IMG/VR virus record: IMGVR_UViG_3300028886_000028
Location: 96,001 to 160,000 of that record
Reading direction: 5' to 3' (one strand)
DNA: 64,000 nt
From: a virus
Lineage: Duplodnaviria; Caudoviricetes
Shown: positions 16,085-34,216 of the stretch, piece by piece
Layout: every line of letters begins with the position of its first letter
Position numbering within the stretch: the stretch's first letter is position 1
The notes under the pieces: generated by a model
Told to the model about the DNA's origin: nothing
The model's input: only the letters and a program-made list of their open reading frames with translations
Databases searched by the model: none
Made by a program: the position numbers and the translations under genes

Positions 16085-16093
16085 ATATTTATA
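16085..16093 (+). promoter_or_regulatory. Putative late promoter (ATATTTATA)
   Basis: Recurring motif about 20 nt upstream of the ATG at 16113. Confidence 0.65.
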
Positions 16094-16112: not shown

Positions 16113-16424
16113 ATGGCTTTTATAATTAAGAAATCTCAAAGCGTCAAACCACAGCAAAAAAACGCTAGCAGAAAACGCGAAGAAATTATTAAAAAAGAAA
16201 CAGTTAAGCCAATAGAAAAAAAAGAGGCAACTGTTGAAGAAAATAAAGACAAAAAAAAAGAAATAATTAAAGTTATGGATAAAATTTCAACTATAGAATC
16301 AATAGTAAATAACACCCCAAATAAGGATGTTAAGAGAATAAAAAGAGATAAGGGATTAATAGAAAGAACAGAAAGTTCAAAAACAATTTTAACTGAAGAT
16401 AATAAACAGCTTTTAGTGGATTAA
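16113..16424 (+). CDS. Hypothetical Lys/Glu-rich protein (possibly head-associated)
   Basis: 103 aa, highly charged, C-terminal 'ILTEDNKQLL'. Follows a late promoter. Confidence 0.6.
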   Translation: MAFIIKKSQSVKPQQKNASRKREEIIKKETVKPIEKKEATVEENKDKKKEIIKVMDKISTIESIVNNTPNKDVKRIKRDKGLIERTESSKTILTEDNKQLLVD

Positions 16425-16436
16425 TAGCATATAATA

Positions 16437-17267
16437 ATGGCAAACTACAAGTATTTAAAAGAAAATAATCTTTTTGAGGCTCATATGAGATATATGAGAG
16501 CATTGGGAGAATCATTTGCGCCTATAGAAGAAGCTGATAATGACCAAAACCAGCAGCAAAACCAACAAGGAGCAGGAATGCCACCGGCACCTGGGTCTGA
16601 CCCAATGGGTGGCGGACAAGACCCAATGATGGGTGGAGTTCCCGGTGGGGCAATGCCTGGACCTGACCCTATGGCAGGAGGAGCACCTGGTTCAGATAAC
16701 GGTGGTATGCCAGACCCAAATGCAGACCCAAATGGAGCAATGCCTGGTGCTGACCCAATGGGCGGTCCTGACCCTATGGCAGATGAAGGGATAGAAGAAG
16801 ACGAGCCTAAAGAGGATGATGAAGTTATTGATGTTGACGATTTAACTGATGCACAGGAAAAGGTAAATGATAAGGTAAATTCTGTTGGAAGAGATTTAGG
16901 AAAGGTAGACGCTAGAATAGAAAAACTTATAGGCGCAATAGAAACATTGCAAAGTATGTTTGACAAGAACAATCAAGAAATTGCAGACCTTAAAACAGAA
17001 TTTGAAAAGAGAAACCCAACGCAGACAGAAAAGTTAAATCTTCGCTCATTAGATTCTTATCCATTTAAAGTTAGGCCTACTGATTATTGGAAAGATAAAG
17101 CCGAAAATAGTAATTACTCTGCATATGCAGATAATCAGGAGCCTACAACTCAAGAATATGTAATAACAAATGATGATGTTGATGATTTTAACGAAAGAGA
17201 AATAGCAGATACTTTTTCTATTACAGATGATTTGGAACAAAACATAAAAAAAATATTTGGCATATAG
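16437..17267 (+). CDS. Putative prohead core / scaffold-like protein
   Basis: N-terminal LKE/LFE/LGE/IEE sites, Pro-Gly-Met-Asp low-complexity linker, acidic stretch, then a coiled coil. Confidence 0.5.
   Translation: MANYKYLKENNLFEAHMRYMRALGESFAPIEEADNDQNQQQNQQGAGMPPAPGSDPMGGGQDPMMGGVPGGAMPGPDPMAGGAPGSDNGGMPDPNADPNGAMPGADPMGGPDPMADEGIEEDEPKEDDEVIDVDDLTDAQEKVNDKVNSVGRDLGKVDARIEKLIGAIETLQSMFDKNNQEIADLKTEFEKRNPTQTEKLNLRSLDSYPFKVRPTDYWKDKAENSNYSAYADNQEPTTQEYVITNDDVDDFNEREIADTFSITDDLEQNIKKIFGI
16576..16790 (+). repeat. Intragenic DPM(G/A)G-type repeats
   Basis: Repeated GACCC(A/T)ATG units encoding GSDPMGG / QDPMMGG / PDPMAGG / ADPMGG / PDPMA. Confidence 0.75.
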
Positions 17268-17270
17268 TAA

Positions 17271-17756
17271 ATGAAGATTATAATTAATGAAGAACAAGTA
17301 AAATTTTTAAATGAAGACATAAGCACCATTGGCGAAGTTTCTTATAATTTAAAGGAATCTATTGCTATATGGTGCTTAATGAATGATTTTAGGTTTTTTA
17401 TTCCTAACAATATTTTTGGCAGCAAAATAAGTGTTGCCAATAGCGAACAAATTAATAGGGAAATTTGTTCTGATATTATGAATGGAGAAATTATGCCGGC
17501 AGATGATGAAAAAGAACTGTTTGGGCATAATGATTATGATGATTTTGAAGATGGTGACGATGAAAGAGAAGAATTTATGAACAGCAATAAAATATATAAA
17601 GTTCAATATGGTGAAGAAGAATATTATATAGAAGTTGCTAGCGATATATATGAATATAGTGGAGAAATGATTTTAGAAAAATATATTGATAAAGAATTAG
17701 ATGATACTGTATGGTATTATGATTCTATTGACTGGTTTTTTAAAAAATTTAAATAA
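17271..17756 (+). CDS. Acidic hypothetical protein with 'IINE...LNED' leader
   Basis: 161 aa, starts MKIIINEEQVKFLNED. Confidence 0.65.
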   Translation: MKIIINEEQVKFLNEDISTIGEVSYNLKESIAIWCLMNDFRFFIPNNIFGSKISVANSEQINREICSDIMNGEIMPADDEKELFGHNDYDDFEDGDDEREEFMNSNKIYKVQYGEEEYYIEVASDIYEYSGEMILEKYIDKELDDTVWYYDSIDWFFKKFK

Positions 17757-17783
17757 AAGTTTTTATTTTTAACATTTTTTTTG

Positions 17784-17791
17784 TATATTTG
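17784..17791 (+). promoter_or_regulatory. Bacteroidota-type -7 promoter (TATATTTG) for the ssb-tdk-recA operon
   Basis: TAnnTTTG match within TTGTATATTTG, 50 nt before the SSB start. Confidence 0.7.
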
Positions 17792-17841
17792 TAATATAGA
17801 ATTTAAGTGCCGCATGGCACATTTTTAATAATTTTTAATTT

Positions 17842-18831
17842 ATGGAAGAAAAAGTTTTAACAGCAAACATTGATGCAGATGCTGTAGCAGAGCAGTATGA
17901 AAAAGAACACACAACTACAGTTTCAACAAAAAAGAAAACAGAATTTAATGAAAAAAATTATCTTCAGGCAAGATTAAAACCTGGAGAAAAATCAAAATCT
18001 TTAACAATTAGGTTATTACCTTTTTCCACAGAAGGCGGTAGCCCTTTCAAGAAAGTTTTTATTCATACAGTTAAAGTCAACAAGGAATTAAGTCCCGGAG
18101 GTTGGCGTACTTTCGTATGCCCCACTAATAACAAGATGGGCGATAGATGCCCATTTTGTGAAGTTTCTGCTGAAGCTAAAAAATTGAGATTTGAAGCATC
18201 AACAGAAATTGAGAAGAAGAAATTTGGTGACGTTGAATTTATGAACAGGGCAAAGGCTGCATGGATTGTAAGGTGCGTTGAAAGAGGTCATGAAGATGAT
18301 GGGGTTAAGTTTTGGCTTTTTAATGATTCTAAGTCTCAAAAAGGCGTTTATAACGACATTATGAACATTTATTTTGAAAGGAAAAAAGCAGCAGAGAGAA
18401 AAGGTAAAGACTGTAATATATTTGACCTTAATGACGGCAAGGATTTAATAATTACTCTTTCAAAAGATGAAAATGGTAAAACTGTAACTAAGGTTGTTGA
18501 TGATGACGAAAGAACGCCGTTAAGTGAAAGTTATGAGCAATCAATGGCTTGGATTACTGATTCTAAGCAATGGAACGAGGTATATACAGTTAAACCATAT
18601 GAATATATGGAAATAGTTGCAAAAGATGGAGTCCCGGTTTTTGACAAAAATAAAAATAGATACGTTGATAAATTTGAAAAAATAGAAGAGGACAAAAAAG
18701 CAGCAGAAGAAGAACTAAAAGAAAATTTAACTGAGCATACAAAGGATTTTTCTGATTTCCCAAAAGAAGAGCAAAAAACAGATGATTTTGGAGGTATAAT
18801 AATTGATGGCGAAGATGATTTGCCGTTTTAA
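17842..18831 (+). CDS. Single-stranded DNA-binding protein (T4 gp32-like)
   Basis: 'IRLLP', 'CP...CPFC' Zn motif, 'GVKFWLF', 'IFDLNDGKDLII', and acidic tail ending DDLPF. Confidence 0.85.
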   Translation: MEEKVLTANIDADAVAEQYEKEHTTTVSTKKKTEFNEKNYLQARLKPGEKSKSLTIRLLPFSTEGGSPFKKVFIHTVKVNKELSPGGWRTFVCPTNNKMGDRCPFCEVSAEAKKLRFEASTEIEKKKFGDVEFMNRAKAAWIVRCVERGHEDDGVKFWLFNDSKSQKGVYNDIMNIYFERKKAAERKGKDCNIFDLNDGKDLIITLSKDENGKTVTKVVDDDERTPLSESYEQSMAWITDSKQWNEVYTVKPYEYMEIVAKDGVPVFDKNKNRYVDKFEKIEEDKKAAEEELKENLTEHTKDFSDFPKEEQKTDDFGGIIIDGEDDLPF

Positions 18832-18847
18832 AAAAAAATCATTTTAG

Positions 18848-19453
18848 ATGAGTAAATTGTATTTCTATTTTGGGGTAATGAATTCATCAAAATCTTTAAG
18901 ATTGTTAGCCACAGCACACGATTTTGATGAAAAAAATATACCTATATTAGTATTAAAACCATCTGCCGATACAAGAGACGGGAAAAATATAATTAAGTCA
19001 AGGGCAGGGCTAGAAAGAGAATGCGTTTCAATAGATGCAGATGTCAACATATTTGATATTGTTAACGATTATAAAAAAATAGCAATGGCAACTCAAGCTA
19101 GGGGAATAAAATGGATTCTTATAGATGAATGCCAATTCTTAACAGAAGAACAAGTTGACCAATTAACAGATATTGTAGATTATCTAGACATCAATGTAAT
19201 ATGTTATGGTTTGAGAACTGATTTTAAATCGAAATTATTTCCGGCTTCAAAAAGACTTTTTGAATTAGCAGATGATATTGAAGAAATAAAGACTACATGC
19301 GATTGCGGAGAGAAAGCATCCATAAACGCTAGATTTAGTAAAGATGGTAAAATAATAACTGAAGGCAGTCAAATTTTAGTTGGAGGCGATGATTTATATC
19401 ACGCGATATGTAGAAAAGATTGGAAAAATCTAATAAGAGAAATTGTAAAATAA
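18848..19453 (+). CDS. tdk: Thymidine kinase
   Basis: 'LYFYFGVMNSSKS', 'ILIDECQFL', 'CYGLRTDF', 'GGDDLYHAICR'. Confidence 0.95.
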   Translation: MSKLYFYFGVMNSSKSLRLLATAHDFDEKNIPILVLKPSADTRDGKNIIKSRAGLERECVSIDADVNIFDIVNDYKKIAMATQARGIKWILIDECQFLTEEQVDQLTDIVDYLDINVICYGLRTDFKSKLFPASKRLFELADDIEEIKTTCDCGEKASINARFSKDGKIITEGSQILVGGDDLYHAICRKDWKNLIREIVK

Positions 19454-19460
19454 AAATGTT

Positions 19461-20663
19461 ATGAAACAAGCAATAAGGAAAAAGGTTTTTACAAAACCAA
19501 GTATTGATGAATTAAAATCTGAAATGGGCTTTGAAACTAAAGCGTCAGATGAACCCATTAAGAAAAGCGAACTTAAAATGTCTAGTGCTGAGAAAGAAAC
19601 AGAATTTATAATCTTGCCTAAAGCATTTGAAAACGCACTAAAATTACCAGGAATACCTAAAGGCTACCTTACTATAGCAACAGGATGGTCTAATACCGGC
19701 AAATCTACTATTAAAAATTGTTTAATTGCTGCTTGTCAAAGAGAAGGCATTGTTCCTGTTATTTTTGAAACAGAAGGAAATTTTGATTGGAAATATGCAA
19801 TAGATTGTGGAGTAGAGGCTGAACCTATATATGGAAATGTGTTGGATGAAGAAACCGGAGAAATAACCGAACAAATTATTAATTATAAAGGCTTCTTTTA
19901 CTTTTTAGACAATAAAGCTTTAGCCGAAAAATATGGAAAAATGGATTATTCAGCAGGCAAAGAGGGTTCTAAACAAAGAAAAGAGGCTGTTTTGGAAGAT
20001 ATAGCATATTGTATAAATGATTTTCTAGATAGGCAAGAAGATGGTAGATTTCCATATCCATTATGCTTCATATGGGATAGTATAGGTTCAATTCAATCAT
20101 TTAAGTCTTACACTAGCAAAAGCGGTAATAATATGTTTGATGCAGGTGCAATTTCACAAGCATTCAATAACATTATAAATAATAGGATTCCTTCTTCAAG
20201 GAAGGTAAGTGAACCTTATACTAATACGTTTTTTTGCATTAATAAAATTTGGAATGATTCTATGAATGGAATGCCTGGAGTTCCTTCTATTGAATTAAAA
20301 GGAGGAAAAACTATGTATTATGGCGCAAGATTAATAATGCATTTAGGAGGCGTTGCAAAAGCAGCAACAAAGGTTTTAAAGGCTACGGCAAAAGGAGAAA
20401 ATTTCAATTATGGAATTGTGACTAAAATTAAGGTAACTAAAAACCAACTTCCGACTCCTTACAATGTTACCTATGAAGGTACTATGTGCTGTGTACATAA
20501 TGGAATTATTTCAGAAACTGATATTGATACTTATAAAAAAGAAAACATTAAGTTAATTCTTGAAAATTTAGAAAAACAAAGGAATAAAGAAGATAAAACA
20601 ATAGTAACAGAAATAACAGAAGCAGATTTACAATATTCTGAGGAAGAAACATTAGATGAATAA
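19461..20663 (+). CDS. RecA/UvsX-like recombinase
   Basis: 'PGIPKG...GWSNTGKS' Walker A, 'FETEG', 'FIWDSIGS', 'KGG' and 'KVTKN' RecA motifs. Confidence 0.9.
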   Translation: MKQAIRKKVFTKPSIDELKSEMGFETKASDEPIKKSELKMSSAEKETEFIILPKAFENALKLPGIPKGYLTIATGWSNTGKSTIKNCLIAACQREGIVPVIFETEGNFDWKYAIDCGVEAEPIYGNVLDEETGEITEQIINYKGFFYFLDNKALAEKYGKMDYSAGKEGSKQRKEAVLEDIAYCINDFLDRQEDGRFPYPLCFIWDSIGSIQSFKSYTSKSGNNMFDAGAISQAFNNIINNRIPSSRKVSEPYTNTFFCINKIWNDSMNGMPGVPSIELKGGKTMYYGARLIMHLGGVAKAATKVLKATAKGENFNYGIVTKIKVTKNQLPTPYNVTYEGTMCCVHNGIISETDIDTYKKENIKLILENLEKQRNKEDKTIVTEITEADLQYSEEETLDE

Positions 20664-20688
20664 AATGGGCGGTTAATACCGCCCATTT
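20663..20688. terminator. Hairpin terminator between convergent recA and glycosyltransferase genes (probably bidirectional)
   Basis: AAATGGGCGGT-taat-ACCGCCCATTT perfect 11-bp stem. Confidence 0.8.
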
Positions 20689-20718
20689 ACATTGAATATA
20701 AAGTTAATTCAGTGGTTT

Positions 20719-22269
20719 TTATTTTTTTTTTAAATATTTTGAATTAGCCCCTATGTTGCATAGCTTTGTTTTATTTTCTATTTTTTCTTTGCTTAATATT
20801 CTTGACCTGAGCTTTTCTATTTTTTCTCTGTGTTTATTTTCAATATTTATAATTTCATTGTTAACAGAGTTTTGCATATTTTTTTTCGTATGCTTAGTTT
20901 TCCATAAAAACCATTTAGAATTAAACAATTTCTTATCCAAATATTTTACCTTAATATCAGGTAATTTCCAAGAAACATAATTAAATGACAATTGGTCTCT
21001 GTGAGAGCCATTTTTAATTTCTTCCCACCATTTTTCCATTAATTTTATGCAGTCTTCATTGTTGTGCTTTCTAAGCAAAATGCCACTTTGAAGTAACCCA
21101 TTTTTTTTGGGAAATTTTTCTTCTTTATAACGATTTATTTGTTTTTCAGTATTTTCTTTTGTGTCTTTTTTTAAAGATATTACTGCTCTTTCTTCGTCAT
21201 AAATGCATTTTCTAGATGGATGCTCAGGAACAAAAACAGAGCAACCAATTTCGTCATTTTGTTCAATAAAATCGTTTAAATCATTTTTAATCTCTATATT
21301 ACCATCTACCCATATTGAAATATCGTAATCACTAAGTAATAAATGAGGGAGGGTTTTTACAAATCTTTGTTTTTTAACTTGTGATAGCTCATCAGTTTCA
21401 TTTGGTAATGGCTTTATTTCCCACACATCACTTTCTATTGCTAAATCATCAGTAAAACAAATGTAATCGAACCCTTCAGTTACGTATTTAGGTTCTGTTA
21501 AAGTATCATATCCTCCAGTTATACAAGTGTATACGACTTTTTTGTTTTTTTCCATAATATTTTTATTGCCATCCCAATATTTTTTATTAATTTTTAACCA
21601 ATCGTTAGGCGTGTAATTATGAACATACCCTTTTTTAACCCAAGACCCGTGTCCATAATGTAAAGCATATTCATTTATTTTAATATCTTTATGACTTAAA
21701 TTTGATGTATTTAAATAAAATGATGCACCAGTATCATATCCATCTCCACCTGGTATACAATTAAGCCCGTGCATTTTTTTTTCATTAAAATACTTTACGT
21801 TTTTTTCATTGCATTTTTCTACATTAATAAAACACAAGTAAGGTAAAACTCTTTTAATTGTAGAATTTGGCTGTGCCTTTATTTCCGCACAGTAAATGTA
21901 GTTATCATCAAATAAATCAGATATGTCTTTTTTTATTAGCACGTCAGAATCAATTAAAAGGAAATTTTGGTTTATAATATCAATACATTTTTGAACTGAT
22001 ACGCAATGTTTTGCGCTACCCCAATTATTAACTTTGCCATTGGAAAATTTTTTCTTTGGGTATTTTTCTAGCCACTTTTCGAAATCAATTATTTGCCCTT
22101 TAGTATTGTCTAAAATAGTAACATTATCAAATTTGGCAGTGAATGGGTATTTGTCGCTATTATCAAATATATAGATAATAGCGTTTTCGACAAATTTATT
22201 TATGCTCATAACCAAATGCTCAGTAAGAACAGGAGTATTGTAATGTATTATAACAATATTTTTTTTCAT
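20719..22269 (-). CDS. Two-domain glycosyltransferase (GT-A/GT2-like + DUF616/TOD1-MUCI70-like)
   Basis: N-domain 'IVIIHYNT..IFDNS..LLIDSDV'. C-domain 'VVYTCITGGYD', 'CFTD', 'SIWVDGN', 'RDQLSFNY'. Confidence 0.8.
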   Translation of the reverse strand: MKKNIVIIHYNTPVLTEHLVMSINKFVENAIIYIFDNSDKYPFTAKFDNVTILDNTKGQIIDFEKWLEKYPKKKFSNGKVNNWGSAKHCVSVQKCIDIINQNFLLIDSDVLIKKDISDLFDDNYIYCAEIKAQPNSTIKRVLPYLCFINVEKCNEKNVKYFNEKKMHGLNCIPGGDGYDTGASFYLNTSNLSHKDIKINEYALHYGHGSWVKKGYVHNYTPNDWLKINKKYWDGNKNIMEKNKKVVYTCITGGYDTLTEPKYVTEGFDYICFTDDLAIESDVWEIKPLPNETDELSQVKKQRFVKTLPHLLLSDYDISIWVDGNIEIKNDLNDFIEQNDEIGCSVFVPEHPSRKCIYDEERAVISLKKDTKENTEKQINRYKEEKFPKKNGLLQSGILLRKHNNEDCIKLMEKWWEEIKNGSHRDQLSFNYVSWKLPDIKVKYLDKKLFNSKWFLWKTKHTKKNMQNSVNNEIINIENKHREKIEKLRSRILSKEKIENKTKLCNIGANSKYLKKK

Positions 22270-22277
22270 ATGCTTAT

Positions 22278-23027
22278 TTAAAAGTCATCATCGTCAATTC
22301 CAACGAAGTTAGTTATATTATTTGTTTCCTGATTATAAAATAGTTCCGGTTTACAGTTTATTCCCTTTTCTATTTTCTTAGTTTCTTGATTTATTTCATT
22401 CATAAAGAAATTAAGTTGCCTATATTCATCCATAGGCAAAAGCTGTGAATACAAATCTTTATTTGTTTTCATAACATTAGTTATCTTCATTCTAATGTCA
22501 TCATATTTCTTTTTTTCATTTGAGAAAAGAGGATTGAAAAAGAAATCATTCCATATTGCTGGGTTTTGGAACAATTTTAAAACGGTTGTATAAAAACAAT
22601 GGAATTCATCGCCCCCTTCGCCACTATTTAAATCAGAATATTTCCAATCAGGCTTACCATTTAAAGATGATACCCATTTTGGGTCTAATAAAAGAGAATG
22701 TAAAGGCCCATTCAGTCTGTCGCCGACATATGATAAATTCCTTAAGAAGCCTCCAGAACCAAGCATGAAATTTTTAAATTTTGAAATATATATAAAATAT
22801 TCTTGGCAATTTTTATCATAACCGGTTTTTTTCCAATTGTTCCATGCCTCATCAAGTTCGTAATCTTTATATCTGTCTGTGTGAAGATTTTTAATTTTAT
22901 TTATGCTATCTATATACGGCTTATAGTTTATAGAACGTGCGCCATTGCCAAATACTGGGTAATTGGCTTCATTTAGCATTTGTAAAAAAAATACGTCAAG
23001 CTTTTGCTCATTTATTTTAATTTTCAT
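22278..23027 (-). CDS. Hypothetical protein with 'IKINE...MLNEA' leader and DDDDF C-terminus
   Basis: 249-aa ORF within the minus-strand operon. Confidence 0.7.
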   Translation of the reverse strand: MKIKINEQKLDVFFLQMLNEANYPVFGNGARSINYKPYIDSINKIKNLHTDRYKDYELDEAWNNWKKTGYDKNCQEYFIYISKFKNFMLGSGGFLRNLSYVGDRLNGPLHSLLLDPKWVSSLNGKPDWKYSDLNSGEGGDEFHCFYTTVLKLFQNPAIWNDFFFNPLFSNEKKKYDDIRMKITNVMKTNKDLYSQLLPMDEYRQLNFFMNEINQETKKIEKGINCKPELFYNQETNNITNFVGIDDDDF

Positions 23028-23040
23028 GTTGTTTTAATTT

Positions 23041-24075
23041 TTAAAAATCGTCATCTGAATCATCAAAAGAAAATGTCATTAATGAATTTGTATTTTGGTC
23101 AACAAAGGATGCTAAGTCATCCAATTCGCATAAATAAGTTCCATCTTCATAATAAACATAAAATTTTTTATTTTTATCATCAAGATGTAATATCAATCTA
23201 TCCTTACCTAGTGTCACTAAACAATTACCTTTATTGTTGAAAGTTTCAGGGGCCTCATTAAACCAAACAGGACTAATTGGGCCTTCTTCAAATGGTTTGC
23301 CTCTAAAAAGGAAATTACATTTACCGTCTTTAACAATACGTGCAAAATTATTAGTGTAATGGAAAGGCATTTCATCTAATGATTTATATAGTTCGTAATT
23401 TCGTTTTCCTAATTGCCATTTTATATCAACATCATTTTTTGCGTATTTGTCGAATGTTTTACCGCCGCTAAATGGTTGAAATGTTTTACCTCCGTCTGTA
23501 GTTATAGCAACAGGATATACGTTTTTAAAGTCTTCTATTAGGCATACATATCCATCGTTATGGCCAAAGAAAATATAGCCATTTATACAATAATACAAAC
23601 TAGGGTGATTATTTTTTAATGCATGTATTAAGTGCAATGCACATGTTGAAGTATATAAATCTCCTCTTGTATTACATACCTTATCGTAATCAATATATCT
23701 TGAATTTCTTAATTCTTGATACTGTTCAGGCGTGAAAATTTTTCTTAATTGAAAATCAATATTTGTGTTTTTATATACTTTTAACGCAATATCATTATCA
23801 TATATTATGAAGTTTCTAAGACTTTTTACTTTCATTTTAAGCAAGCATCCGCCATATGTTCCATTTGTGTTCTGATAGCCGGCCGCCAATTTATATGTGC
23901 TATACACTCCTGCGCCATACATATTGCCGCCATTAGAATCAGTAAATATCCTTTCAAGTCCCGCTTCCCCTAAACCGTCTAATGATTCTGCTTTTGTTCC
24001 ATGATATACGTAAAATCCATCATGCTCAAAATCTTCGGTTAATATTTTTTTGTATGCTTCGTTAATTAAACTCAT
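23041..24075 (-). CDS. PARP/diphtheria-toxin-class ADP-ribosyltransferase-like protein with WG-repeat-like C-terminus
   Basis: 'VYHGT' and 'GNMYGAGVYST' H-Y motifs. 'FARIVKDGKCNF...WFNEA..F' resembles WG beta repeats. Leader MSLINE...ILTED. Confidence 0.7.
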   Translation of the reverse strand: MSLINEAYKKILTEDFEHDGFYVYHGTKAESLDGLGEAGLERIFTDSNGGNMYGAGVYSTYKLAAGYQNTNGTYGGCLLKMKVKSLRNFIIYDNDIALKVYKNTNIDFQLRKIFTPEQYQELRNSRYIDYDKVCNTRGDLYTSTCALHLIHALKNNHPSLYYCINGYIFFGHNDGYVCLIEDFKNVYPVAITTDGGKTFQPFSGGKTFDKYAKNDVDIKWQLGKRNYELYKSLDEMPFHYTNNFARIVKDGKCNFLFRGKPFEEGPISPVWFNEAPETFNNKGNCLVTLGKDRLILHLDDKNKKFYVYYEDGTYLCELDDLASFVDQNTNSLMTFSFDDSDDDF

Positions 24076-25619
24076 TTTAATAACTTGTTAAAATTTCTTA
24101 TAAACGTTTCCTTTACATAATTTAATTCGCCTAATGCTTCTTCCTCTGTGTCCGGCATCATTTTATATTCTTCTACAGACATTCCTAATTTGTCTAACGC
24201 CCAAACAAATAAATCGCTAGCTGTGTCTTCAGCAAGTCCAACCATAATAAAGTATATGTTTTGGAAATCTGAAATAACTGAATTGAACATATTTTTATTA
24301 AAAGACCCGTCTTTCTTTTTAATGATGTTCATATTATTTGCTATTATTTGCTTAGCTTCATCCATAAACATGCCAAACCTCATAAAAATCAATGCTTTTG
24401 TTAAATCCGCATATATTTTTCTTTTATTGGCTGCGTCTCTAATTGCAGTATTCCATCCTGTATAATTTTTACCTCTCAAACGCCTTATTGTTTCAGATTG
24501 GTCAACAAGGTAAGAAATACATTTTGATAAGTTTCCTCCATTTGCAGCATATTTTTCCAATTCAGTATCTCCAACATTTGCTGCGAAATTTGCAATATTT
24601 GATAATATGGTTTTTTCATCAAATTTATTGGAGTCGTCATCAGGCTTTAATACATCAAATCTTGATGCATCATCATCTTTTTTTGCAGCGGCATTAATAT
24701 TGGTGATTGATTTATTATTCACAATTGCATAGAAATCATAATTATCTTGCATTCCCTGTATTAATTGCGTTTCACTTAAATCATAATAAGGGCCATCAAC
24801 ATTAAATTTACCGCCAGTGTTATTATTACTATCTCCATAGTTAATGTCATTCATTCCTTTTTTAACAAGTAATCTTGACATCGCGTTACTGTCATAAGTT
24901 TGTTGGTCAACACCAAACTTATTCATTGCAGCAGACTTACTACCTTTTTGCGTATTTGAAGGTCTAACTGCATAAATAGGCTTTGCCCCTTGAACAGGCT
25001 CTCTGTTAAATATTCTCCATTGTACAGCAGTAGCTAAGAATCTAGGAATGCCTTGATGACCACTTTTTAGCCATTGAGTTAAAATCATTGCATTGTTCAA
25101 TGCAGAGAAACTTATAATTTTTTCATAATCATCAGGGTCAAGTCTTCTAATCGCTCCAATAGAATTCAAATATTGCATAAAGTTTGGGTCATTAAAATTC
25201 TGTTCCAAAGCTTTCAGAATATCGTCAATATAAGCACCCCTATCTATTTGTAGTTTGCTTGATAAATCAGATGTCACAACATTATTTATTGTTTGCTCCA
25301 CTTGTGCTTCAAGATTAGGTAAATCGTTTATATCATAAACATATCCGCCAACTTGTTCAAGCGCAGATAGTATTTTTGAAAAAGCATTTTTACCATAAAT
25401 GAATTTTTTATAATCATCTACTTTAACTGCCCTGACTAGTGAATCTCCATCTACACTTAAACCCTTTGCGACACCTGAACCAGCAACAACGTTTGCTGTT
25501 TTATTATCGCAATTAAAATAGAAAAAAACCGTTGGAGTCAAAATGGCCTTTCCATTAGGGTCAATGCCTGTTTTCGTGTTTGGTGAATATTTCGAACCAA
25601 TTGTTAATAATTTTGCCAT
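24072..25619 (-). CDS. Protein with ArdC-like N-type ssDNA-binding domain
   Basis: 'FSALNNAMILTQ...ATAVQWRIFNREPVQGAKPIYAVRP...YYDLSET' resembles the ArdC-N pattern YS..N..LI..Q...W...R.V..G.K.I...P...FD.SQT. Confidence 0.6.
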   Translation of the reverse strand: MAKLLTIGSKYSPNTKTGIDPNGKAILTPTVFFYFNCDNKTANVVAGSGVAKGLSVDGDSLVRAVKVDDYKKFIYGKNAFSKILSALEQVGGYVYDINDLPNLEAQVEQTINNVVTSDLSSKLQIDRGAYIDDILKALEQNFNDPNFMQYLNSIGAIRRLDPDDYEKIISFSALNNAMILTQWLKSGHQGIPRFLATAVQWRIFNREPVQGAKPIYAVRPSNTQKGSKSAAMNKFGVDQQTYDSNAMSRLLVKKGMNDINYGDSNNNTGGKFNVDGPYYDLSETQLIQGMQDNYDFYAIVNNKSITNINAAAKKDDDASRFDVLKPDDDSNKFDEKTILSNIANFAANVGDTELEKYAANGGNLSKCISYLVDQSETIRRLRGKNYTGWNTAIRDAANKRKIYADLTKALIFMRFGMFMDEAKQIIANNMNIIKKKDGSFNKNMFNSVISDFQNIYFIMVGLAEDTASDLFVWALDKLGMSVEEYKMMPDTEEEALGELNYVKETFIRNFNKLLK

Positions 25620-25632
25620 ATAATATTTTTAT

Positions 25633-26451
25633 TTAAGGGTGTCTTCTGTTATTATTTTGTCCTGATAATCTTGCAAATCTTGCATCTTGTTTTCCATATC
25701 CTTGTGGCTTTAAAAACGCATATAAAAGAGTGGATTTATCAATTTCAAGACTTACCTTAGCGTTCATTTTAGCACGTCTTCCGAGACCTTGTAAATTACC
25801 AGTTATAGGAGTAAAATCTAGTTTTTTAGCCGCTTCTTTGTCAGGTAATATAATGTGTATGCCGTTATTCATACTTCTATAGGCAAATAATGGTTTAATT
25901 CCTGCTTTTTGTATAATACTCATTGTCATATTTATGTCATTTTGGTCAGCAGAATCAACATCAACAAAACATATAGAACGTTCAGGGCCCTCTAAAACTT
26001 GGTCAAATGACCTACCAGCGGCTATAGCCATAGCAGTTTCTCTATTGCCACGAACCCTTTTTAAATAATTTGATGTATATTTATCAATAACAGCTTTTGA
26101 ACGAGGATTAAGGAAAATGCAAGCTCTTGCCCTTTCTGATGCACATAAATATTTTATTTCTTTTTCAGCAGCATTGAATTCATCAATACTTTTGAAAAAG
26201 TAATTTTTTATGTATTGAGCAGCATTTCTTGGAGAATGTTGACCGGGATTGTCTTTATCTCGTTTCATTAATTGAACAAAATAAATAGTATCACCAGGCT
26301 TGTCAAATTTAAGCATTTCTCTTATATTGTCAAAATTGTCAATCTCAACAGCACCATTTGAAAGCTCAATCCTATCTTCATCCATCATTTCATTAATTGA
26401 TTGCCTTAAAGCATTTTTTATAACAGATTCACTAATTATTACGTTTCTCAT
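25633..26451 (-). CDS. Archaeo-eukaryotic primase (AEP/PrimPol)-like protein with 'IISE...INE' leader
   Basis: hhhDhD motif 'CFVDVD' and S..G.H motif 'SMNNGIHII', plus 'ARACIFLNPRS'. Confidence 0.55.
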   Translation of the reverse strand: MRNVIISESVIKNALRQSINEMMDEDRIELSNGAVEIDNFDNIREMLKFDKPGDTIYFVQLMKRDKDNPGQHSPRNAAQYIKNYFFKSIDEFNAAEKEIKYLCASERARACIFLNPRSKAVIDKYTSNYLKRVRGNRETAMAIAAGRSFDQVLEGPERSICFVDVDSADQNDINMTMSIIQKAGIKPLFAYRSMNNGIHIILPDKEAAKKLDFTPITGNLQGLGRRAKMNAKVSLEIDKSTLLYAFLKPQGYGKQDARFARLSGQNNNRRHP

Positions 26452-26466
26452 TTATTTTTAATTTTT

Positions 26467-26482
26467 ATATAAATATTTATAT
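26467..26482. promoter_or_regulatory. Bidirectional late promoter: perfect palindrome ATATAAATATTTATAT
   Basis: Contains ATATTTATA on both strands, in the 53-bp gap between divergent starts at 26451 (-) and 26505 (+). Confidence 0.7.
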
Positions 26483-26504
26483 GTAATTAATAAATATAAA
26501 AATT

Positions 26505-27671
26505 ATGACAATAACTGATGAAATAAAAGACCTTTTTCGTAAAGTGCGCACAAGCTGTGGAGCTCCTATAAGGCCAGTTCAGTTGGAAGATGAACAATTA
26601 TGCGACCTTCTCGAAATGTGCGTTGGAGATTATGCTTCTTATGTACAAAATTGGGTAATCGAATCTCAATGGCTTAATATGATGGGAAATAATCAATTAT
26701 TAGATAATCCAGCGGATTTGGCTTTTGCATTAAGTACTAGAACTTTAGATTGGAGTCGTTCGTGGAGTGAGTGGTTTTCTAAGGAAGTAGGACTCCAGCA
26801 ACGTGGAACAAAATGGGAATTAAAAAAAGATTTTTTCACTATTGAAAAAGGAAAACAAGTATATGTCATACCAGCAGGTAGGGAAATAAATAGAGTGATG
26901 TATGTGACTCCTTCAACTACAAGGGCTGCTTTGTATGGAAACATTGGAATGTTAGATAGTGGAATTGCTGGAGGATATGGCCAATATGGGACATTTCAAA
27001 ATGGAATGGGTTTAATAGGCTTTTATGTTGGAAGTGCATATGACACAGCACTTATGGCAGCAGATTTAAAATACAAAAATTCTCTTTTACGTGGAGATTT
27101 GGCTTATAAAGTAACGGCAGGTCCTAATGGAACTCATTTAGTTCATTTGTTGTCCACTCCAGGTTCTAAGAATGCACTAGGTGGATTATCAGCAGATGAT
27201 TCATATGGATGGGGTAGATTCATAAATTGTGTTTGTTGGTATACGTACTACGACGTTTCTACCGGTGAAGATGGAAACACAACTGAACAATGTATGCTTG
27301 ACAATAAAGATACTTTATTGATTACTCCTGACCAAGTTCCATTGAGCAAGATGCATTATGAATTGCTTAATTATCCAACGCAACAGATTGTTAGAAGATT
27401 GTTAATAGCGGAAGCTAAGATATTGTTGGGTAATATCAGAGGTTATGCTAGTGGTGTAGTTAAAATACCAGAAGCAGAAATGCAACTTGACTATTCAATG
27501 TTGTTAGACCAAGGTAAGCAAGAAAAAGAGGCTGTACTAAGCGAATTAAAGGAGCGTTTAGATAGAATGCTTCCTTGGAATCAAATGAAGAACCAAGCCG
27601 ATATGAACGAAAGCCTTATGAATGTTCTTAAAATGAAAGCTATGCCTTACAGTGGAATAATGGTAAGATAA
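26505..27671 (+). CDS. Neck / head-completion protein (T4 gp13-like)
   Basis: 'GAPIRPVQLEDEQL' N-terminus and 'AKILLGNIRG...GVVKIP..EMQLDY..L' C-terminus, typical of gp13-like adaptors. Confidence 0.7.
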   Translation: MTITDEIKDLFRKVRTSCGAPIRPVQLEDEQLCDLLEMCVGDYASYVQNWVIESQWLNMMGNNQLLDNPADLAFALSTRTLDWSRSWSEWFSKEVGLQQRGTKWELKKDFFTIEKGKQVYVIPAGREINRVMYVTPSTTRAALYGNIGMLDSGIAGGYGQYGTFQNGMGLIGFYVGSAYDTALMAADLKYKNSLLRGDLAYKVTAGPNGTHLVHLLSTPGSKNALGGLSADDSYGWGRFINCVCWYTYYDVSTGEDGNTTEQCMLDNKDTLLITPDQVPLSKMHYELLNYPTQQIVRRLLIAEAKILLGNIRGYASGVVKIPEAEMQLDYSMLLDQGKQEKEAVLSELKERLDRMLPWNQMKNQADMNESLMNVLKMKAMPYSGIMVR

Positions 27672-27686
27672 TTTTTCATTTTACTT

Positions 27687-27694
27687 ATATTTAT
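27687..27694 (+). promoter_or_regulatory. Putative late promoter (ATATTTAT)
   Basis: Recurring motif 25 nt upstream of the ATG at 27720. Confidence 0.6.
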
Positions 27695-27719
27695 TAAGAA
27701 AATAAATACGTATTATAAT

Positions 27720-28307
27720 ATGAATAAGAAACTTATAAGATTAACAGAAAGTGACCTTCACAAAATTGTGAAAGAGTCAGTTAGGAAAGTGTTGGCAGAA
27801 GCAGACCCACGCTCATGGGATGCGGTTGCAAGAAGATATGACCAAACAGACCCACAGAAGGCTGCGTATGCAAGACAACGTGGAGTTCAACAATGGAATA
27901 AACAGTTCGGAGGCGATGTGAGGATGAATAATGATGGAAGCCTTGAAGATGTTGGAGAAATACATCCAGTTCCATTTCGTGATTCTGAAGTCAATGCCCC
28001 ATTTAGTATGAGTAGATTTCAAAGTGATGTAGTTTCAAATGAACCAAAATATAGTGGGTGGGGAAGAACAAAATATACTCCAAATATGGATGGGACATTT
28101 GATTTAGAGCATAATGACTACACAAGATTATCAAAAAATGGTATGGAAAGGGAATTTGATGGTACAAGAGTAGCAAAAGAAAATCCTACTAAAGTAAATT
28201 ATCAGCAAGACGTGCCATTTGGTAATTATAGCAGACGTTTTAATGTTGCAAGTCAAATGAAAACAGGTAATGGTGTTTACGACAAAACAAGAGGTGGATG
28301 GCAATAA
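27720..28307 (+). CDS. Hypothetical protein with MNKKLIRLTESDLHKIVKESV leader (candidate internal head cargo)
   Basis: 195 aa, with its own late promoter and terminator, and visibly higher GC than its neighbours. Confidence 0.75.
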   Translation: MNKKLIRLTESDLHKIVKESVRKVLAEADPRSWDAVARRYDQTDPQKAAYARQRGVQQWNKQFGGDVRMNNDGSLEDVGEIHPVPFRDSEVNAPFSMSRFQSDVVSNEPKYSGWGRTKYTPNMDGTFDLEHNDYTRLSKNGMEREFDGTRVAKENPTKVNYQQDVPFGNYSRRFNVASQMKTGNGVYDKTRGGWQ

Positions 28308-28403
28308 TTAAGCAGCCACAAGTCCAACCTTAATCTCATACCACTTACGAACTAAGCCAATCGACTTGTCGAACATATGGGCGAATCTCTCTGATTCGCT
28401 CAT
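28308..28403 (-). pseudogene. Probable 3' remnant of an IS1595-family transposase
   Basis: Minus strand reads (K)MSESERFAHMFDKSIGLVRKWYEIKVGLVAA*, resembling IS1595 transposase C-termini (..NTRKMSESERF..). Its stop abuts the cargo gene stop (TAA|TTA). Family recognised from memory only. Confidence 0.5.
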
Positions 28404-31687: not shown

Positions 31688-34216
31688 ATGGCAAAAGACG
31701 CACAAACAAATAAGCTTGGTTTTCTTGGAGAAGATTTTCAATATAAATTAGTCCATGAGTTTATAGAAGATAAAGAATTTTTCAAAGATTTGTGCGACAT
31801 AATAGACCAAAACCTTTTTACTGACCCCAACCTTAAAACATTGGTTGGGGTTATGAGAGAATATTATAAAAAAGAGCAAGTGCCAGCAAATTATGATATT
31901 CTTAAAATAGCACTTGCTAATAAATCTCATAATGAAACTGAAAAGGAATATTATGATGCCATAATTGATAAAATTCATGGATTATCTTCTGAAGGTTCTA
32001 ACTACATAAGAGAACTTGCCGAAAAGTTTTTCAAGCAGCAAAATATGATTCGTGTTGCTAATGAAATAATAAAAATAGCTGGAAAGGGAGATATTGAGAA
32101 TTATGATAAATGTGTCGATATTTTAAATAAAGCATTAATACAAGGAACAAATGAAGATTTAGGATATTGTGTTTTTGATAACGAAAATGAAACATTATCT
32201 GAGGAATATCGTGTGGCCATACCAACAGGAATAGGCAAGATTGACGAAACGCTTGAAGGTGGACTTGGAAAAGGAGAATTAGGAGTGATAGTTGGCTCTT
32301 CTTCATTTGGTAAAGCCCAACCACTTGATGCTAGAATATTAACTCCAAATGGATATAAACTAATGGGAGAAATGTCTGTTGGCGATTATGTAATAGGTTC
32401 TGACGGCAAGCCTCATGTTGTAAGTGGTATATATCCTCAAGGTAAAAGGCCAATATATAAAGTTTCATTTTCAAATGGCACTTCATGCGAATGTGATATA
32501 GAACATTTATGGAATGTAAATTCTCTCTATCAAAGATGTGGTAAAAAATATGTCGCAGGAATTTCCAAAAACAGAGACGATAAAAGATATGTTCCTGACC
32601 ATTCATTTAAAACTTTGTCTTTAAGAGAAATATTAGAAAAAGGACTAATTAAAAAAAGTTCTTCAAGATATAACTTCAAGGTTCCTGTGGTTAAACCTAT
32701 TGAATTCGCCGGACAAGAAACTAAGTTTGACCCATATTTAGTAGGCTATTATATTGGTGATGGTTCTTTTAAAAGAGTTGAAATAACAGTTGGAAAAGAC
32801 GATAAAGAATGTGTTGAATCAATTTTGAAACCAATTTTAAATGAAGATTTACATATTTTTTATAGAGAAAAAAGAAGCATCTATCAGTTTGATATTATAG
32901 GGCAAACAAAAAAGAATTTAAAAGAATGTTTTTCTACAGAATGCAAGTCAGATGGTAAATTTATACCTAGAGAATATTTGTTTAATTCTATCGAAAAAAG
33001 AATTGCTGTTTTACAGGGTATAATGGATTCTGATGGCCACGCAAACAATAATGGTTCTTGCGAATTCTGTAGTAAGAGTAAACAACTCGCATTAGATGTG
33101 CAATTTCTTGTTCGTTCCCTTGGAGGTTTTGCAAGTTTAATAGAATCAAGTTCTTCATATTTTTCTAAAAAATATAATAAGAGAATAGATTGTGGCAAAC
33201 GTTATAGGGTTACTATAAGTATGTGTAACAACTCAATTCCATTATTTAGAATGGAAAGGAAACAAACAAGAGTTAAATATCGCACACGTGGGGCTGATGC
33301 TTTGTTTATGACAAACGTTGAATATGTTGGAGAAAAAGAAGCACAGTGTATAATGGTAGATTCTGATGAACATTTATATGTTACAGAAGATTTTATTGTA
33401 ACGCATAACACATCTTTGACCACAGCCATGTCGTCATTTGCTGCTACTTATCGTTCTCCGCAAAATAACAATGATGGGTATAAAGTTCTACAAATTGTTT
33501 TCGAAGACAGAGTTAAACAGATTCAAAGGAAACATTTTGGAAGAATTACAGGTTTTGAAGCAAAAGATTTATCAAAGCCGGGAATCATAGAACAAGTTAG
33601 AGAACAATTATCTAAATATCCTGATAGAGATTTATTGCAAAAAAATTTAAGGATAATAAGACTCCCAAGCGGAGAAAAAACTGCTGATGATATTAAAAGG
33701 CTTATTATTAAGCTTAAAAATAGTGGCTTTAGCCCAGACCTTGTTATTGTTGATTATTTCGAATGTTTACTTTGCAAAGGAGACTCAAGTGATGATAAAT
33801 GGGAAAAAGAAGGAAAAACCATGAGAAAGTTTGAGTCAATGGCAGGAGAACTTAATATAGGAATTTGGATACCAGTTCAAGGAACTAAAGATTCTCTTAA
33901 TGTGGAAGTTGTTACGATGGATAAAGCAGGAGGCTCTTTTAAGAAGATTCAAATTGCGCACATTGTTATGTCAATAGCAAGAACTGTTGCAGATATTGAA
34001 GAAAGTAAAGCAACAATAGCAATATTGAAAAATAGAGCAGGAAAAGCAGGAAAAGTGTTTAATAATGTGGAGTTTAACAATGGAACTTGCAGGATTAGTA
34101 CTGATAATGTTGATGAATTTAATGGCTTGTTGGCGTTCAATAAAAGCAAAGAAGAAGAAACAAAAAATATTCAAAAAACAATAGTTCAAGCAATAGCTAA
34201 TAGACAACAAAAATAG
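31688..34216 (+). CDS. Replicative DNA helicase (DnaB / T4 gp41-like), intein-containing
   Basis: 'IPTGIGKIDETLEGGLGKGELGVIVG..FGK|T' Walker A, 'LVIVDY', 'ILKNRAG'. Confidence 0.92.
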   Translation: MAKDAQTNKLGFLGEDFQYKLVHEFIEDKEFFKDLCDIIDQNLFTDPNLKTLVGVMREYYKKEQVPANYDILKIALANKSHNETEKEYYDAIIDKIHGLSSEGSNYIRELAEKFFKQQNMIRVANEIIKIAGKGDIENYDKCVDILNKALIQGTNEDLGYCVFDNENETLSEEYRVAIPTGIGKIDETLEGGLGKGELGVIVGSSSFGKAQPLDARILTPNGYKLMGEMSVGDYVIGSDGKPHVVSGIYPQGKRPIYKVSFSNGTSCECDIEHLWNVNSLYQRCGKKYVAGISKNRDDKRYVPDHSFKTLSLREILEKGLIKKSSSRYNFKVPVVKPIEFAGQETKFDPYLVGYYIGDGSFKRVEITVGKDDKECVESILKPILNEDLHIFYREKRSIYQFDIIGQTKKNLKECFSTECKSDGKFIPREYLFNSIEKRIAVLQGIMDSDGHANNNGSCEFCSKSKQLALDVQFLVRSLGGFASLIESSSSYFSKKYNKRIDCGKRYRVTISMCNNSIPLFRMERKQTRVKYRTRGADALFMTNVEYVGEKEAQCIMVDSDEHLYVTEDFIVTHNTSLTTAMSSFAATYRSPQNNNDGYKVLQIVFEDRVKQIQRKHFGRITGFEAKDLSKPGIIEQVREQLSKYPDRDLLQKNLRIIRLPSGEKTADDIKRLIIKLKNSGFSPDLVIVDYFECLLCKGDSSDDKWEKEGKTMRKFESMAGELNIGIWIPVQGTKDSLNVEVVTMDKAGGSFKKIQIAHIVMSIARTVADIEESKATIAILKNRAGKAGKVFNNVEFNNGTCRISTDNVDEFNGLLAFNKSKEEETKNIQKTIVQAIANRQQK
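32315..33409 (+). mobile_element. Class 3 intein (365 aa) with LAGLIDADG homing endonuclease in the helicase P-loop
   Basis: Starts AQPLDA after GK and ends VTHN before T. W-C-T triad (EHLW, QCI, VTHN). LAGLIDADG helices LVGYYIGDG and LQGIMDSDG. Confidence 0.92.

Follow-up and report, generated by a model that had tools for sequence, protein, structure and literature searches.

Five proteins encoded in a 64,000-nucleotide stretch (hereafter, the window) of the 401-kb genome of a T4-like rumen phage, namely those with ORF starts at 27720, 26451(-), 23027(-), 17271, and 24075(-), where (-) marks the minus strand, begin with leaders that, judged by sequence and homologues, are variants of one portable family, and the new observation is that its forms, types A, B, and C, constitute a single interchangeable family on the same grounds. 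The leader is an amphipathic helix of ~14–27 residues with an (I/L)-x-E site near residue 5–10 and a second site at the end; I/L at P3 and Glu at P1 are invariant, and P2 varies. It probably serves as a propeptide that targets proteins to the capsid and is then cut away by the head protease, which would make it a larger version of the capsid targeting sequence (CTS) of T4. By analogy with T4, the leader would dock late proteins, once synthesised, onto the prohead core, the gp21-type prohead protease would cut the leader off after Glu, and the mature cargo would stay inside the head; we further infer that the cargo could be delivered with the DNA into the next host. The cargo includes a predicted PARP-like ADP-ribosyltransferase (ART), a predicted archaeo-eukaryotic primase (AEP)-like enzyme, and uncharacterised small proteins. 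Coordinates are given in Table 1.

Table 1. Leaders, cargo domains, and regulatory elements in the window.
Feature	Coordinates	Strand	Basis or remarks
N-terminus of 276-aa protein 16437-17267, doubtful member	16437..16478	+	L-K-E, L-F-E, then A
Type B leader, residues 1-15 of 161-aa protein 17271-17756	17271..17315	+	two orthologues
Type B leader, residues 1-20 of 249-aa protein 22278-23027(-)	22968..23027	-	49 full-length homologues
Short leader, residues 1-14 of 344-aa protein 23041-24075(-)	24034..24075	-	15 homologues
Putative ADP-ribosyltransferase-fold cargo domain, residues about 20-198 of 23041-24075(-)	23482..24018	-	structural matches, weak Pfam PARP
Type C leader, residues 1-21 of 272-aa protein 25633-26451(-)	26389..26451	-	N-terminal scores, homologues
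AEP-like cargo domain, residues about 37-252 of 25633-26451(-)	25696..26343	-	AF2 pLDDT 91
Type A leader, residues 1-27 of 195-aa protein 27720-28307	27720..27800	+	HMM E 1.5e-15
ATATTTAT promoter-like motif	16085..16092	+	21 nt before 16113; operon 16113 > 16437 > 17271
Divergent intergenic region, ATATTTAT on both strands	26469..26497	both	between 26451(-) and 26505
ATATTTAT, minus copies	26469-26476, 26490-26497	-	towards 26451(-)
ATATTTAT, plus copy	26473-26480	+	towards 26505
ATATTTAT motif	27687..27694	+	26 nt before 27720 start
Hairpin and T-run, possible terminator	17807..17820	+	weak, 5-bp stem
Terminator-like hairpin after type A cargo gene	28377..28403	+	11-bp stem, T-run

Leader family and its variants

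The sequence-only reading of the window had claimed that six proteins, these five and the one starting at 16437, share a similar leader with two or more (I/L)-x-E sites. All six ORF starts and the reported N-terminal residues were verified, and at least two sites within residues 1–30 were found in each protein (four in 17271, three in 16437, and two each in 27720, 23027(-), 24075(-), and 26451(-)), whereas none of the other long ORFs among the 39 of the window has as many in its first 30 amino acids. The similarity itself stood by sequence for 27720 and 26451(-), was borderline for 17271, 23027(-), and 24075(-), and failed for 16437. According to the all-against-all comparison of N-termini, 15 paralogous leaders reach scores of about 100 with that of 27720, and the leader of 26451(-), clearly a divergent relative, reaches 40–58 against the type A/C cluster; the three borderline N-termini score only 30–38, the 99.5th percentile being 33, and these scores rule out that the six are equally good members. 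We retain 17271, 23027(-), and 24075(-) in the family since their homologues show types A, B, and C in register, with the sites kept and x variable.

Type A, represented by 27720 (terminal site L-A-E, then A), is strongly conserved over 27 residues; the HMM scan finds 16 copies in the genome, and metagenomes hold 948 protein clusters with this leader, behind which stand varied protein bodies. In 132 full-length copies, retrieved by leader similarity, so that P1 conservation is partly selected, P1 is Glu in all 132 and never Asp, P3 is L or I in 117, M in 13, and V in two, and P2 is spread over nine residues. The positions invariant outside both sites are R7, L8, T9, L13, and S20. The codons vary between copies (e.g., Ser AGT vs TCA), and as the differences are synonymous or two-step, selection acts on the leader peptide and not on RNA; mRNA-level conservation as the cause of the leader is ruled out by the same differences. 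Internal leader copies are present in 51 of the 132 metagenomic proteins, and fit polyprotein processing and a repeated structural helix equally well.

The type B leader of 23027(-) has sites I-N-E and L-N-E, then A. On the same cargo, its full-length homologues display a type A, a type B, or an intermediate leader, all aligned in register, with [IL]xE at the first site in 49 out of 49 and at the last site in 45 out of 49, a variable x, and Ala at P1' in 32 out of 50 aligned rows. The sites of 17271 are also I-N-E and L-N-E, then D; its two orthologues retain the two sites with a different x (L-T-E in place of L-N-E). These orthologues were found only as neighbours of homologues of 16437, and peptide patterns retrieved no relatives of 17271-17756 from viral contigs. 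Related phages either lack a gene in the 17271 slot or have a different cargo there, with a type B or a type A leader; the 27720 slot likewise varies among them, containing other leader-bearing cargo or nothing.

The portability suggested earlier is seen in four ways: one leader stands on unrelated cargo, one cargo has different variants of the leader, the AEP-like cargo has none in most of its distant homologues, and cassette slots are swapped between relatives. The cargo proteins are indeed otherwise unrelated, as had been claimed: when the first 32 residues were stripped from 33 leader-bearing proteins, a single pair matched (BLASTP E <= 1e-3).

The membership of 16437 is doubtful on sequence grounds. 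Its sites are kept in 10 relatives, but the entire N-terminus is equally conserved; in the all-against-all comparison it shows no similarity to the leader cluster, its best partners being other N-terminal families, and the gene is a syntenic core gene adjoining gp32.

Genome-wide frequency of (I/L)-x-E sites

Over 457 crude ORFs of the genome, two or more sites in residues 1–30 occur in 59, compared to 25.9 ± 4.5 in composition-preserving shuffles, so two-site N-termini exceed chance in this genome. The excess shrinks in residues 31–60 (34 vs 18.9), and beyond residue 60 the ORFs show no significant excess over the shuffles. With type A removed, it persists (47 vs 25.6). An [IL][NTS]E pattern starts within residues 2–10 of 34 ORFs, whereas 10.9 would be expected (P about 1e-8). 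The background density of (I/L)-x-E is 1.37 per 100 amino acids; the motif is short and common, and therefore its mere presence says little, which counts against reading it as a cut propeptide. In this genome, K, I, L, and E are also more frequent at the N-termini than in the remaining protein. The replication and nucleotide genes of the window (gp32-like, TK, RecA/UvsX-like, 5'-3' exonuclease, DnaB-like helicase, NrdD, thioredoxin, and NrdG-like) have zero or one site each, in line with the earlier statement that they lack the leader.

Cargo proteins

The leader sites of 24075(-) are I-N-E and L-T-E, then D-F. The 15 homologues, with identities as low as 38%, all have E14 and, at -2, I/L; x is T, K, N, or A, and the upstream segment is of variable length. 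In the model, residues 1–17 have pLDDT < 50 and lie outside the ART fold. The Pfam PARP match of 23041-24075(-) (E 0.0047, 16.9 bits) is under the curated cut-off of 26.7; nearly all domain-length structural matches of residues 20–198 are ART folds with modest Z of 4–5.5, namely, MbcT, RCD1-PARP, ParT, PARP1/2/3/4/10, and cholix and diphtheria toxins. H25 and Y58-S59-T60 are invariant among homologues. Taken together, the modelled fold and the motifs suggest a PARP-like ART of the H-Y (PARP/diphtheria) type.

The sites of 26451(-) are I-S-E and I-N-E, and the whole extension over leaderless homologues is about 35 residues: in most of the more distant homologues among those listed (~200 aa), which have no leader, residue 2 aligns to query residues 36–37, and the match of PHROG 14949 likewise begins at residue 36. 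Other homologues carry type A-like leaders. The best full-domain structural match of the cargo domain is the RepB' primase (Z 8.2, 134 aligned), with Z 6.8 for the S-2L PrimPol and 5.8–6.8 over 135–163 residues for PrimPol, PriS, and LigD-Pol; D164 and D166 (DxD) are invariant, and H199 is conserved in at least 90%. With the modelled fold, DxD, and the conserved His, the protein is predicted to belong to the AEP superfamily. Its leader is modelled fairly confidently as a helix (pLDDT about 80), which could be retained after maturation.

The ART and AEP themes emerged only from an exhaustive structural aligner, Foldseek against PDB giving no clear match for either model. Sequence comparison with solved structures yielded nothing for 25633-26451(-), 26505-27671, and 24072-25619(-), and PHROG and Pfam have no family for most cargo proteins. 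In 50,697 GenBank phage records no match was found either for the locus (megablast) or for the type A protein and the ART (tblastn).

Promoter-like motif and operons

The claim that all six genes lie downstream of ATATTTAT holds if operons are taken into account. The motif lies 21–46 nt ahead of the starts at 16113, 26451(-), 26505, and 27720, two of which, 26451(-) and 27720, are among the six; 16437 and 17271 follow 16113 within its operon with gaps of 12 and 3 nt, and 24075(-) and 23027(-) come after 26451(-) in a tight minus-strand run. Most type A genes have their own ATATTTAT, arranged as before 27720. The overall count of the motif in the window shows no enrichment (30 vs 24.9). In the genome, 73 out of 198 copies stand in the sense orientation no more than 80 nt ahead of an ORF, compared to 29 for the reverse complement, and the proposed co-occurrence with the leader was borne out genome-wide: leader genes are enriched behind the motif (odds ratio 5.9, P 5e-6). 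As ATATTTAT also precedes portal, protease, scaffold, sheath, and fibre genes, it may mark late transcription. The hairpin that follows 17271-17756 and precedes the gp32-like gene possibly terminates the leader operon ahead of the replication genes. Contigs from one bovine gut metatranscriptome are identical to the locus over parts of 24719-26012 and 27832-28371; such contigs carry no information on transcription, timing, or 5' ends.

Head module

The idea of leader cleavage calls for a gp21-type protease, and a T4 gp21-family prohead protease is indeed present (Peptidase_S77, PF03420, at C1:25035-25733(-), E 5.8e-23; 33% identity to T4 gp21 over 153 residues). The same genome has a T4-type head module of terminase, portal, protease, acidic scaffold-like protein, and gp23 capsid protein (match to the gp23 family with E 4.7e-65). 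The capsid protein has I-Y-E then A at residues about 57–60, by-eye placement of which apparently puts it where T4 gp23 has L-T-E|A. Type B-leader genes stand between the portal and protease genes, where T4 has gp67 and gp68, and in four relatives type A genes are 0.1–5 kb from the protease gene. The S77 protease is found in three out of three complete and five out of five largest leader-bearing IMG/VR records, and three incomplete ones gave no S77 match; this co-occurrence is not independent evidence, since the records represent a single phage lineage. The complex prediction for a type A leader and the scaffold-like protein gave a score of 0.00, uninformative on binding either way.

Function of the leader

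Several lines of evidence point to a capsid-targeting propeptide. The conserved positions, I/L at P3 and Glu at P1, fit the L/I-x-E specificity of gp21 cleavage. The leader is also separable from the mature domain, given the leaderless AEP homologues, the disordered ART leader, and the leader swaps on one cargo. The ~25 conserved residues of type A exceed the needs of a cut site or of the 10-residue CTS of T4, and thus another binding partner may exist. This excess, with its invariants along the helix beyond the sites, is what one would expect if the leader were a permanent N-terminal helix of a large multigene family, serving, for instance, docking or oligomerisation with a partner other than the prohead core and never removed; the internal copies in multi-module proteins and the fairly confidently modelled helix of the AEP-like protein agree with that, and the adhesin N-terminal tag family of the same genome probably mounts proteins on the virion with no cut site. 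Still, we consider a permanent helix unlikely, as a plain helix would tolerate Asp at P1, P2 varies freely while P3 stays I/L, the length and sequence between the sites vary freely on the same cargo, the ART leader is disordered in the model, and the AEP-like cargo appears to work without a leader in most of its more distant homologues. Even less probable is a tag for some phage machine other than the capsid, such as a modifying enzyme, a chaperone, or an export route: in the loci read, no candidate partner enzyme adjoins the leader genes, the recurring neighbour is the head protease, and the charged, amphipathic leader is unlike a Sec or Tat signal.

Chance, together with K/I/L/E-rich N-termini in an AT-rich genome, might alternatively account for the resemblance of the weaker members (chiefly 16437, perhaps also 17271 or 24075(-)). 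The borderline scores of 17271, 23027(-), and 24075(-), the unlinked 16437, the compositional bias, and the about 26 two-site ORFs expected anyway would be explained in this way; but the orthologues keep both sites while x changes, a single alignment of the 22278-23027(-) family connects type B with type A, relatives fill the 17271 slot with type A or type B cargo, and the excess over shuffles survives without type A, so that we regard chance as improbable.

A propeptide of this kind might be more general. The two-site leader of ~25 residues, at the N-terminus or between modules, would then be the loading code of rumen T4-like jumbo phages, through which each genome would load dozens of interchangeable proteins, among them the primase-polymerase-like enzyme and the PARP-like ADP-ribosyltransferase, into the head for release by the prohead protease, with the cassettes, each with a late-type promoter, swapped at hot spots; we offer this broader proposal tentatively, as possible rather than probable. 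If the leader does load the capsid, a simple sequence rule would list the proteins co-delivered with DNA by an uncultured gut and rumen jumbo-phage lineage, likely counter-defence and take-over factors, type A alone spanning hundreds of protein families in metagenomes. The T4 CTS principle would scale to dozens of cargo types and polyproteins, the repertoire of injected effectors would greatly exceed that of T4, with its three internal proteins and Alt, in both size and modularity, and a second, longer tag would be available for loading foreign proteins into phage heads. The principle is established for T4, and what would be new is the scale, the sequence, and the type of cargo rather than the kind of system.

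Comparison with known systems

T4 gp21 cleaves after L/I-x-E, and T4 Alt is a packaged ADP-ribosyltransferase (PMC9026906); the diverse internal proteins of T-even phages have only the capsid targeting sequence in common (PMC3012670, PMC9026906). The idea of a packaging tag is itself already in print for T-even phages and is not new; the literature searches turned up no description of this particular leader. Like the T4 CTS, the leader is a short portable N-terminal peptide on unrelated proteins, ending in L/I-x-E, in a genome with a gp21-family protease. Among the T4 N-termini of Alt, gp24, gp67, gp68, gp22, and gp21, those of the clipped proteins Alt (M-E-L-I-T-E) and gp24 (M-A-K-I-N-E) resemble the starts of the ART (M-S-L-I-N-E) and of 22278-23027(-) (M-K-I-K-I-N-E) here. 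The leader is longer than the CTS (up to 27 residues vs 10–19) and has two conserved sites, its genes number dozens per genome compared to three internal protein genes and Alt in T4, and, unlike the CTS, it also occurs inside multi-module proteins. As a counterpart to T4 Alt, one cargo is a putative ADP-ribosyltransferase by its predicted fold; T4 Alt is of the R-S-E type, whereas the fold and motifs suggest the H-Y type here. The internal proteins of T4 are basic, whereas the pI of the cargo here is mixed, and basic pI was dropped as a trait resembling T4 internal proteins.

In the phiKZ-like giant phages 201phi2-1, phiKZ, and SPN3US, N-terminal propeptides of head and ejection proteins are cut by a diverged gp21 homologue (PMC9026906, PMC10052503). 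Many head-internal proteins of these phages are cut after Glu, with multi-site propeptides as a safeguard, and the leader here also has two sites. The phiKZ-like propeptides follow S/A-x-E, whereas the leader follows (I/L)-x-E and reuses one recognisable sequence. To our knowledge, the phiKZ-like propeptides are not one conserved, portable sequence.

The internal-protein loci of T-even phages are polymorphic, encoding diverse defence-countering proteins with the CTS alone in common (PMC3012670). The slots at 17271 and 27720 are similarly variable loci with exchangeable cassettes behind a constant leader. The differences from the T-even loci are the rumen jumbo-phage lineage, another leader sequence, the dispersal of cassettes over the genome, and the promoter-like motif that each type A gene has of its own.

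Enrichment of (I/L)-x-E sites at N-termini

Each of the six ORFs proposed to carry a common leader (16437, 17271, 23027(-), 24075(-), 26451(-) and 27720, named by window start, with (-) for the minus strand) has the N-terminus given in the sequence-only reading, with two to four [IL]xE sites in the first 30 residues; the remaining 33 long ORFs of the window have at most one each. Throughout the genome, 59 of 457 crude ORFs have at least two sites at residues 1–30, vs. 25.9 ± 4.5 when each N-terminus is shuffled. The excess is smaller at residues 31–60 (34 observed, 18.9 shuffled), vanishes further in, and persists when the strongest leader family is left out (47 observed, 25.6 shuffled), and thus the N-terminus-specific enrichment is real. 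In the window, genes for replication, described as leaderless in the sequence-only reading, and for nucleotide metabolism carry zero or one site each.

Leader forms

The type A leader, 27 residues long in the 27720 protein, heads 16 ORFs of the genome (HMM E 1e-12 to 1e-16) and, within a narrow length band, 948 metagenomic protein clusters, none with a Pfam domain or name. Its copies differ synonymously and draw on both families of Ser codons, which makes the peptide the conserved level. In the all-vs-all comparison of N-termini, 27720 and 26451(-) (type C) share one cluster, and 17271, 23027(-) (both type B) and 24075(-) are borderline.

Judging from sequence, the three types (A, B, and C) are variants of a single leader that can replace one another, because homologues of the three short-leader proteins link the forms and keep the sites. 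Among 49 full-length relatives of the 249-aa protein 22278-23027(-), the same body, beginning near a conserved P-x-F-G, follows a type B, an intermediate or an evident type A leader, always in register, with [IL]xE at the first site in 49/49 and at the last in 45/49, x being six or seven different residues. Fifteen relatives of the ADP-ribosyltransferase-like protein (ART), 24075(-), as little as 38% identical, all keep the Glu that precedes D/E-F, with I/L two residues ahead of it, while the upstream segment varies in sequence and length. Both 17271 orthologues keep the two sites with x altered. The proposal of one similar leader on six proteins is thus upheld for 27720 and 26451(-) by clustering and for 17271, 23027(-), and 24075(-) via homologues, and is not supported for 16437, which showed no relation to the leader cluster in the all-vs-all comparison and has nothing tying it to the family; its N-terminus is conserved in full across ten relatives, and the gene is syntenic core, beside gp32.

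Separately, about 25 small ORFs (90–190 aa) share an N-terminal block, F/L-K/L-R-F-L-K-E-x-G-x-Y, 10–20 residues from the start, which could be a further tag or the start of a paralogous domain.

Features of the window and the whole genome (C1)
Feature	Location	Strand	Remark
Large terminase and portal	head module, outside window		
Peptidase_S77 (gp21-family) prohead protease	C1:25035-25733	(-)	E 5.8e-23
Scaffold-like protein	head module, outside window		acidic, 521 aa
gp23-family capsid protein	head module, outside window		
Cassette hot spots	window 17271-17756; 27720-28307		loci L004, L005, L010-L022 in related phages
515-aa protein and ART	window 23041-25619	(-)	gene pair conserved to 38% ART identity (L007, L009)
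C-termini of 249-aa protein and ART	window 22278-22300; 23041-23065	(-)	acidic run, then terminal aromatic residue
220-aa ORF	C1:168773-169435		leader copies at residue 1 and about residue 62
Small ORFs with N-terminal block	C1:265000-350000; 382000-384300		
First type A gene	C1:81-173		recurs at contig end (401070-401138)
DnaB-like helicase gene	window 31688-34216		LAGLIDADG domain at residues 438-506
TnpB/Cas12f-like (OrfB_IS605) gene	L009:656-1816		related phage contig

Portability and cargo

Once the first 32 residues are removed, 33 leader-bearing proteins yield one BLASTP pair. The archaeo-eukaryotic primase-like (AEP-like) protein 25633-26451(-) has 563 relatives in a library of 1.84 billion proteins. 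Among the closer ones, some have type C or type A-like leaders and others carry the domain after further modules, a leader-like helix intervening; in the majority of more distant relatives (~200 aa) the domain starts at their residue 2, equivalent to residue 36–37 here, where PHROG 14949 also begins. One leaderless relative, a single case, is found on an 85-kb phage contig, surrounded by small early-type genes. Of the related phages, five have nothing in the slot 3' of the 16437 gene, two have a 17271 homologue there, one has other type B cargo and one type A cargo; at the 27720 slot, one relative has a different type A cargo and another has nothing.

The AEP-like model (pLDDT 91) matches RepB' primase (Z 8.2) and other AEP enzymes across the whole domain; its DxD is invariant and a His is conserved. 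In the ART model (pLDDT 81; residues 1–17 under 50), almost all structural neighbours of residues 20–198 are ADP-ribosyltransferases, with modest Z (4–5.5); the Pfam PARP match is sub-threshold, and His and Tyr-Ser-Thr are invariant. The leaderless 515-aa protein 24072-25619(-) precedes ART even in distant relatives, and the two may act together. Cargo pI is mixed. ART homologues keep the D/E-rich C-terminal run plus F, Y, or W, and these C-termini resemble SSB-type tails; C-terminal clipping is known from T4 Alt too (PMC9026906).

Link to head genes

The genome has a T4-type head module. Its protease is 33% identical to T4 gp21 across 153 residues, and its capsid protein has I-Y-E then Ala near residue 60, equivalent to L-T-E then Ala of T4 gp23 when matched by eye, without formal alignment. 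The stretch from portal to protease, occupied in T4 by gp67 and gp68, contains two type B-leader genes here, and in four related records type A genes lie 0.1–5 kb from the protease gene. The protease is present in 3/3 complete leader-bearing records and in the five largest, and absent from 3/5 leader-bearing fragments.

The promoter-like motif ATATTTAT is not enriched across the window overall. Genome-wide, 73/198 copies lie in sense, at most 80 nt upstream of ORFs, mostly 20–45 nt from the start; its reverse complement occurs 29 times in the same stretches. It precedes most type A genes as well as those for the portal, protease, scaffold-like, sheath, and fibre proteins, and stands ahead of 16/34 ORFs that carry [IL][NTS]E at residues 2–10 vs. 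55/423 others (P 5e-6). A weak hairpin with a T-run separates 17271-17756 from the gp32-like gene.

Proposed mechanism

T4 gp21 cleaves after L/I-x-E, T4 internal proteins bear capsid targeting sequences (CTS) of 10–19 residues, and the N-terminal propeptide that Alt loses has 7 residues (PMC9026906). By analogy, the reading with most support makes the leader a CTS-like propeptide: it would be an amphipathic helix, would dock late proteins onto the prohead core and would be removed by the gp21-type protease at the terminal, perhaps also the first, I/L-x-Glu. Such targeting plus cleavage is fairly probable for the five members and unlikely for 16437; delivery into the host is a more tentative proposal.

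The strongest single argument for a CTS-like propeptide is the constraint on type A copies, where P1 Glu is never Asp in 132 copies, P3 is mostly I/L, and P2 is free. Exchange or loss of the leader without touching the cargo also supports it, and the T4 substrates Alt and gp24 start much like ART and the 23027 protein. Type A conservation extending well past a cut site counts against it, as do the internal copies (51/132), which are equally compatible with a repeated helix and with polyprotein processing. The 220-aa ORF is an in-genome example of such copies, common in metagenomic proteins.

The packing by T-even phages of diverse proteins with the CTS alone in common is already known (PMC3012670; PMC9026906). 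Unlike the T-even CTS, the leader here is longer, has two sites, differs in scale (per genome, 16 type A copies and no fewer than 30 leader-type N-termini; in metagenomes, hundreds of clusters), is also used inside multi-module proteins, and has AEP-like and PARP-like enzymes among its cargo. The literature search found no paper describing it; new are the A/B/C forms as one family, the leaderless relatives of the AEP cargo, and the cassette hot spots.

The record is single (401,138 bp, 31% G+C; the window is its bases 96001–160000), and since the first type A gene recurs at the contig end, the assembly is self-closing or terminally repeated, despite its "linear" label. The TnpB/Cas12f-like gene and a ClpB-like AAA+ gene lie near the ART locus of a related phage. 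The LAGLIDADG domain of the DnaB-like helicase gene precedes the helicase C-terminal domain and is probably an intein.
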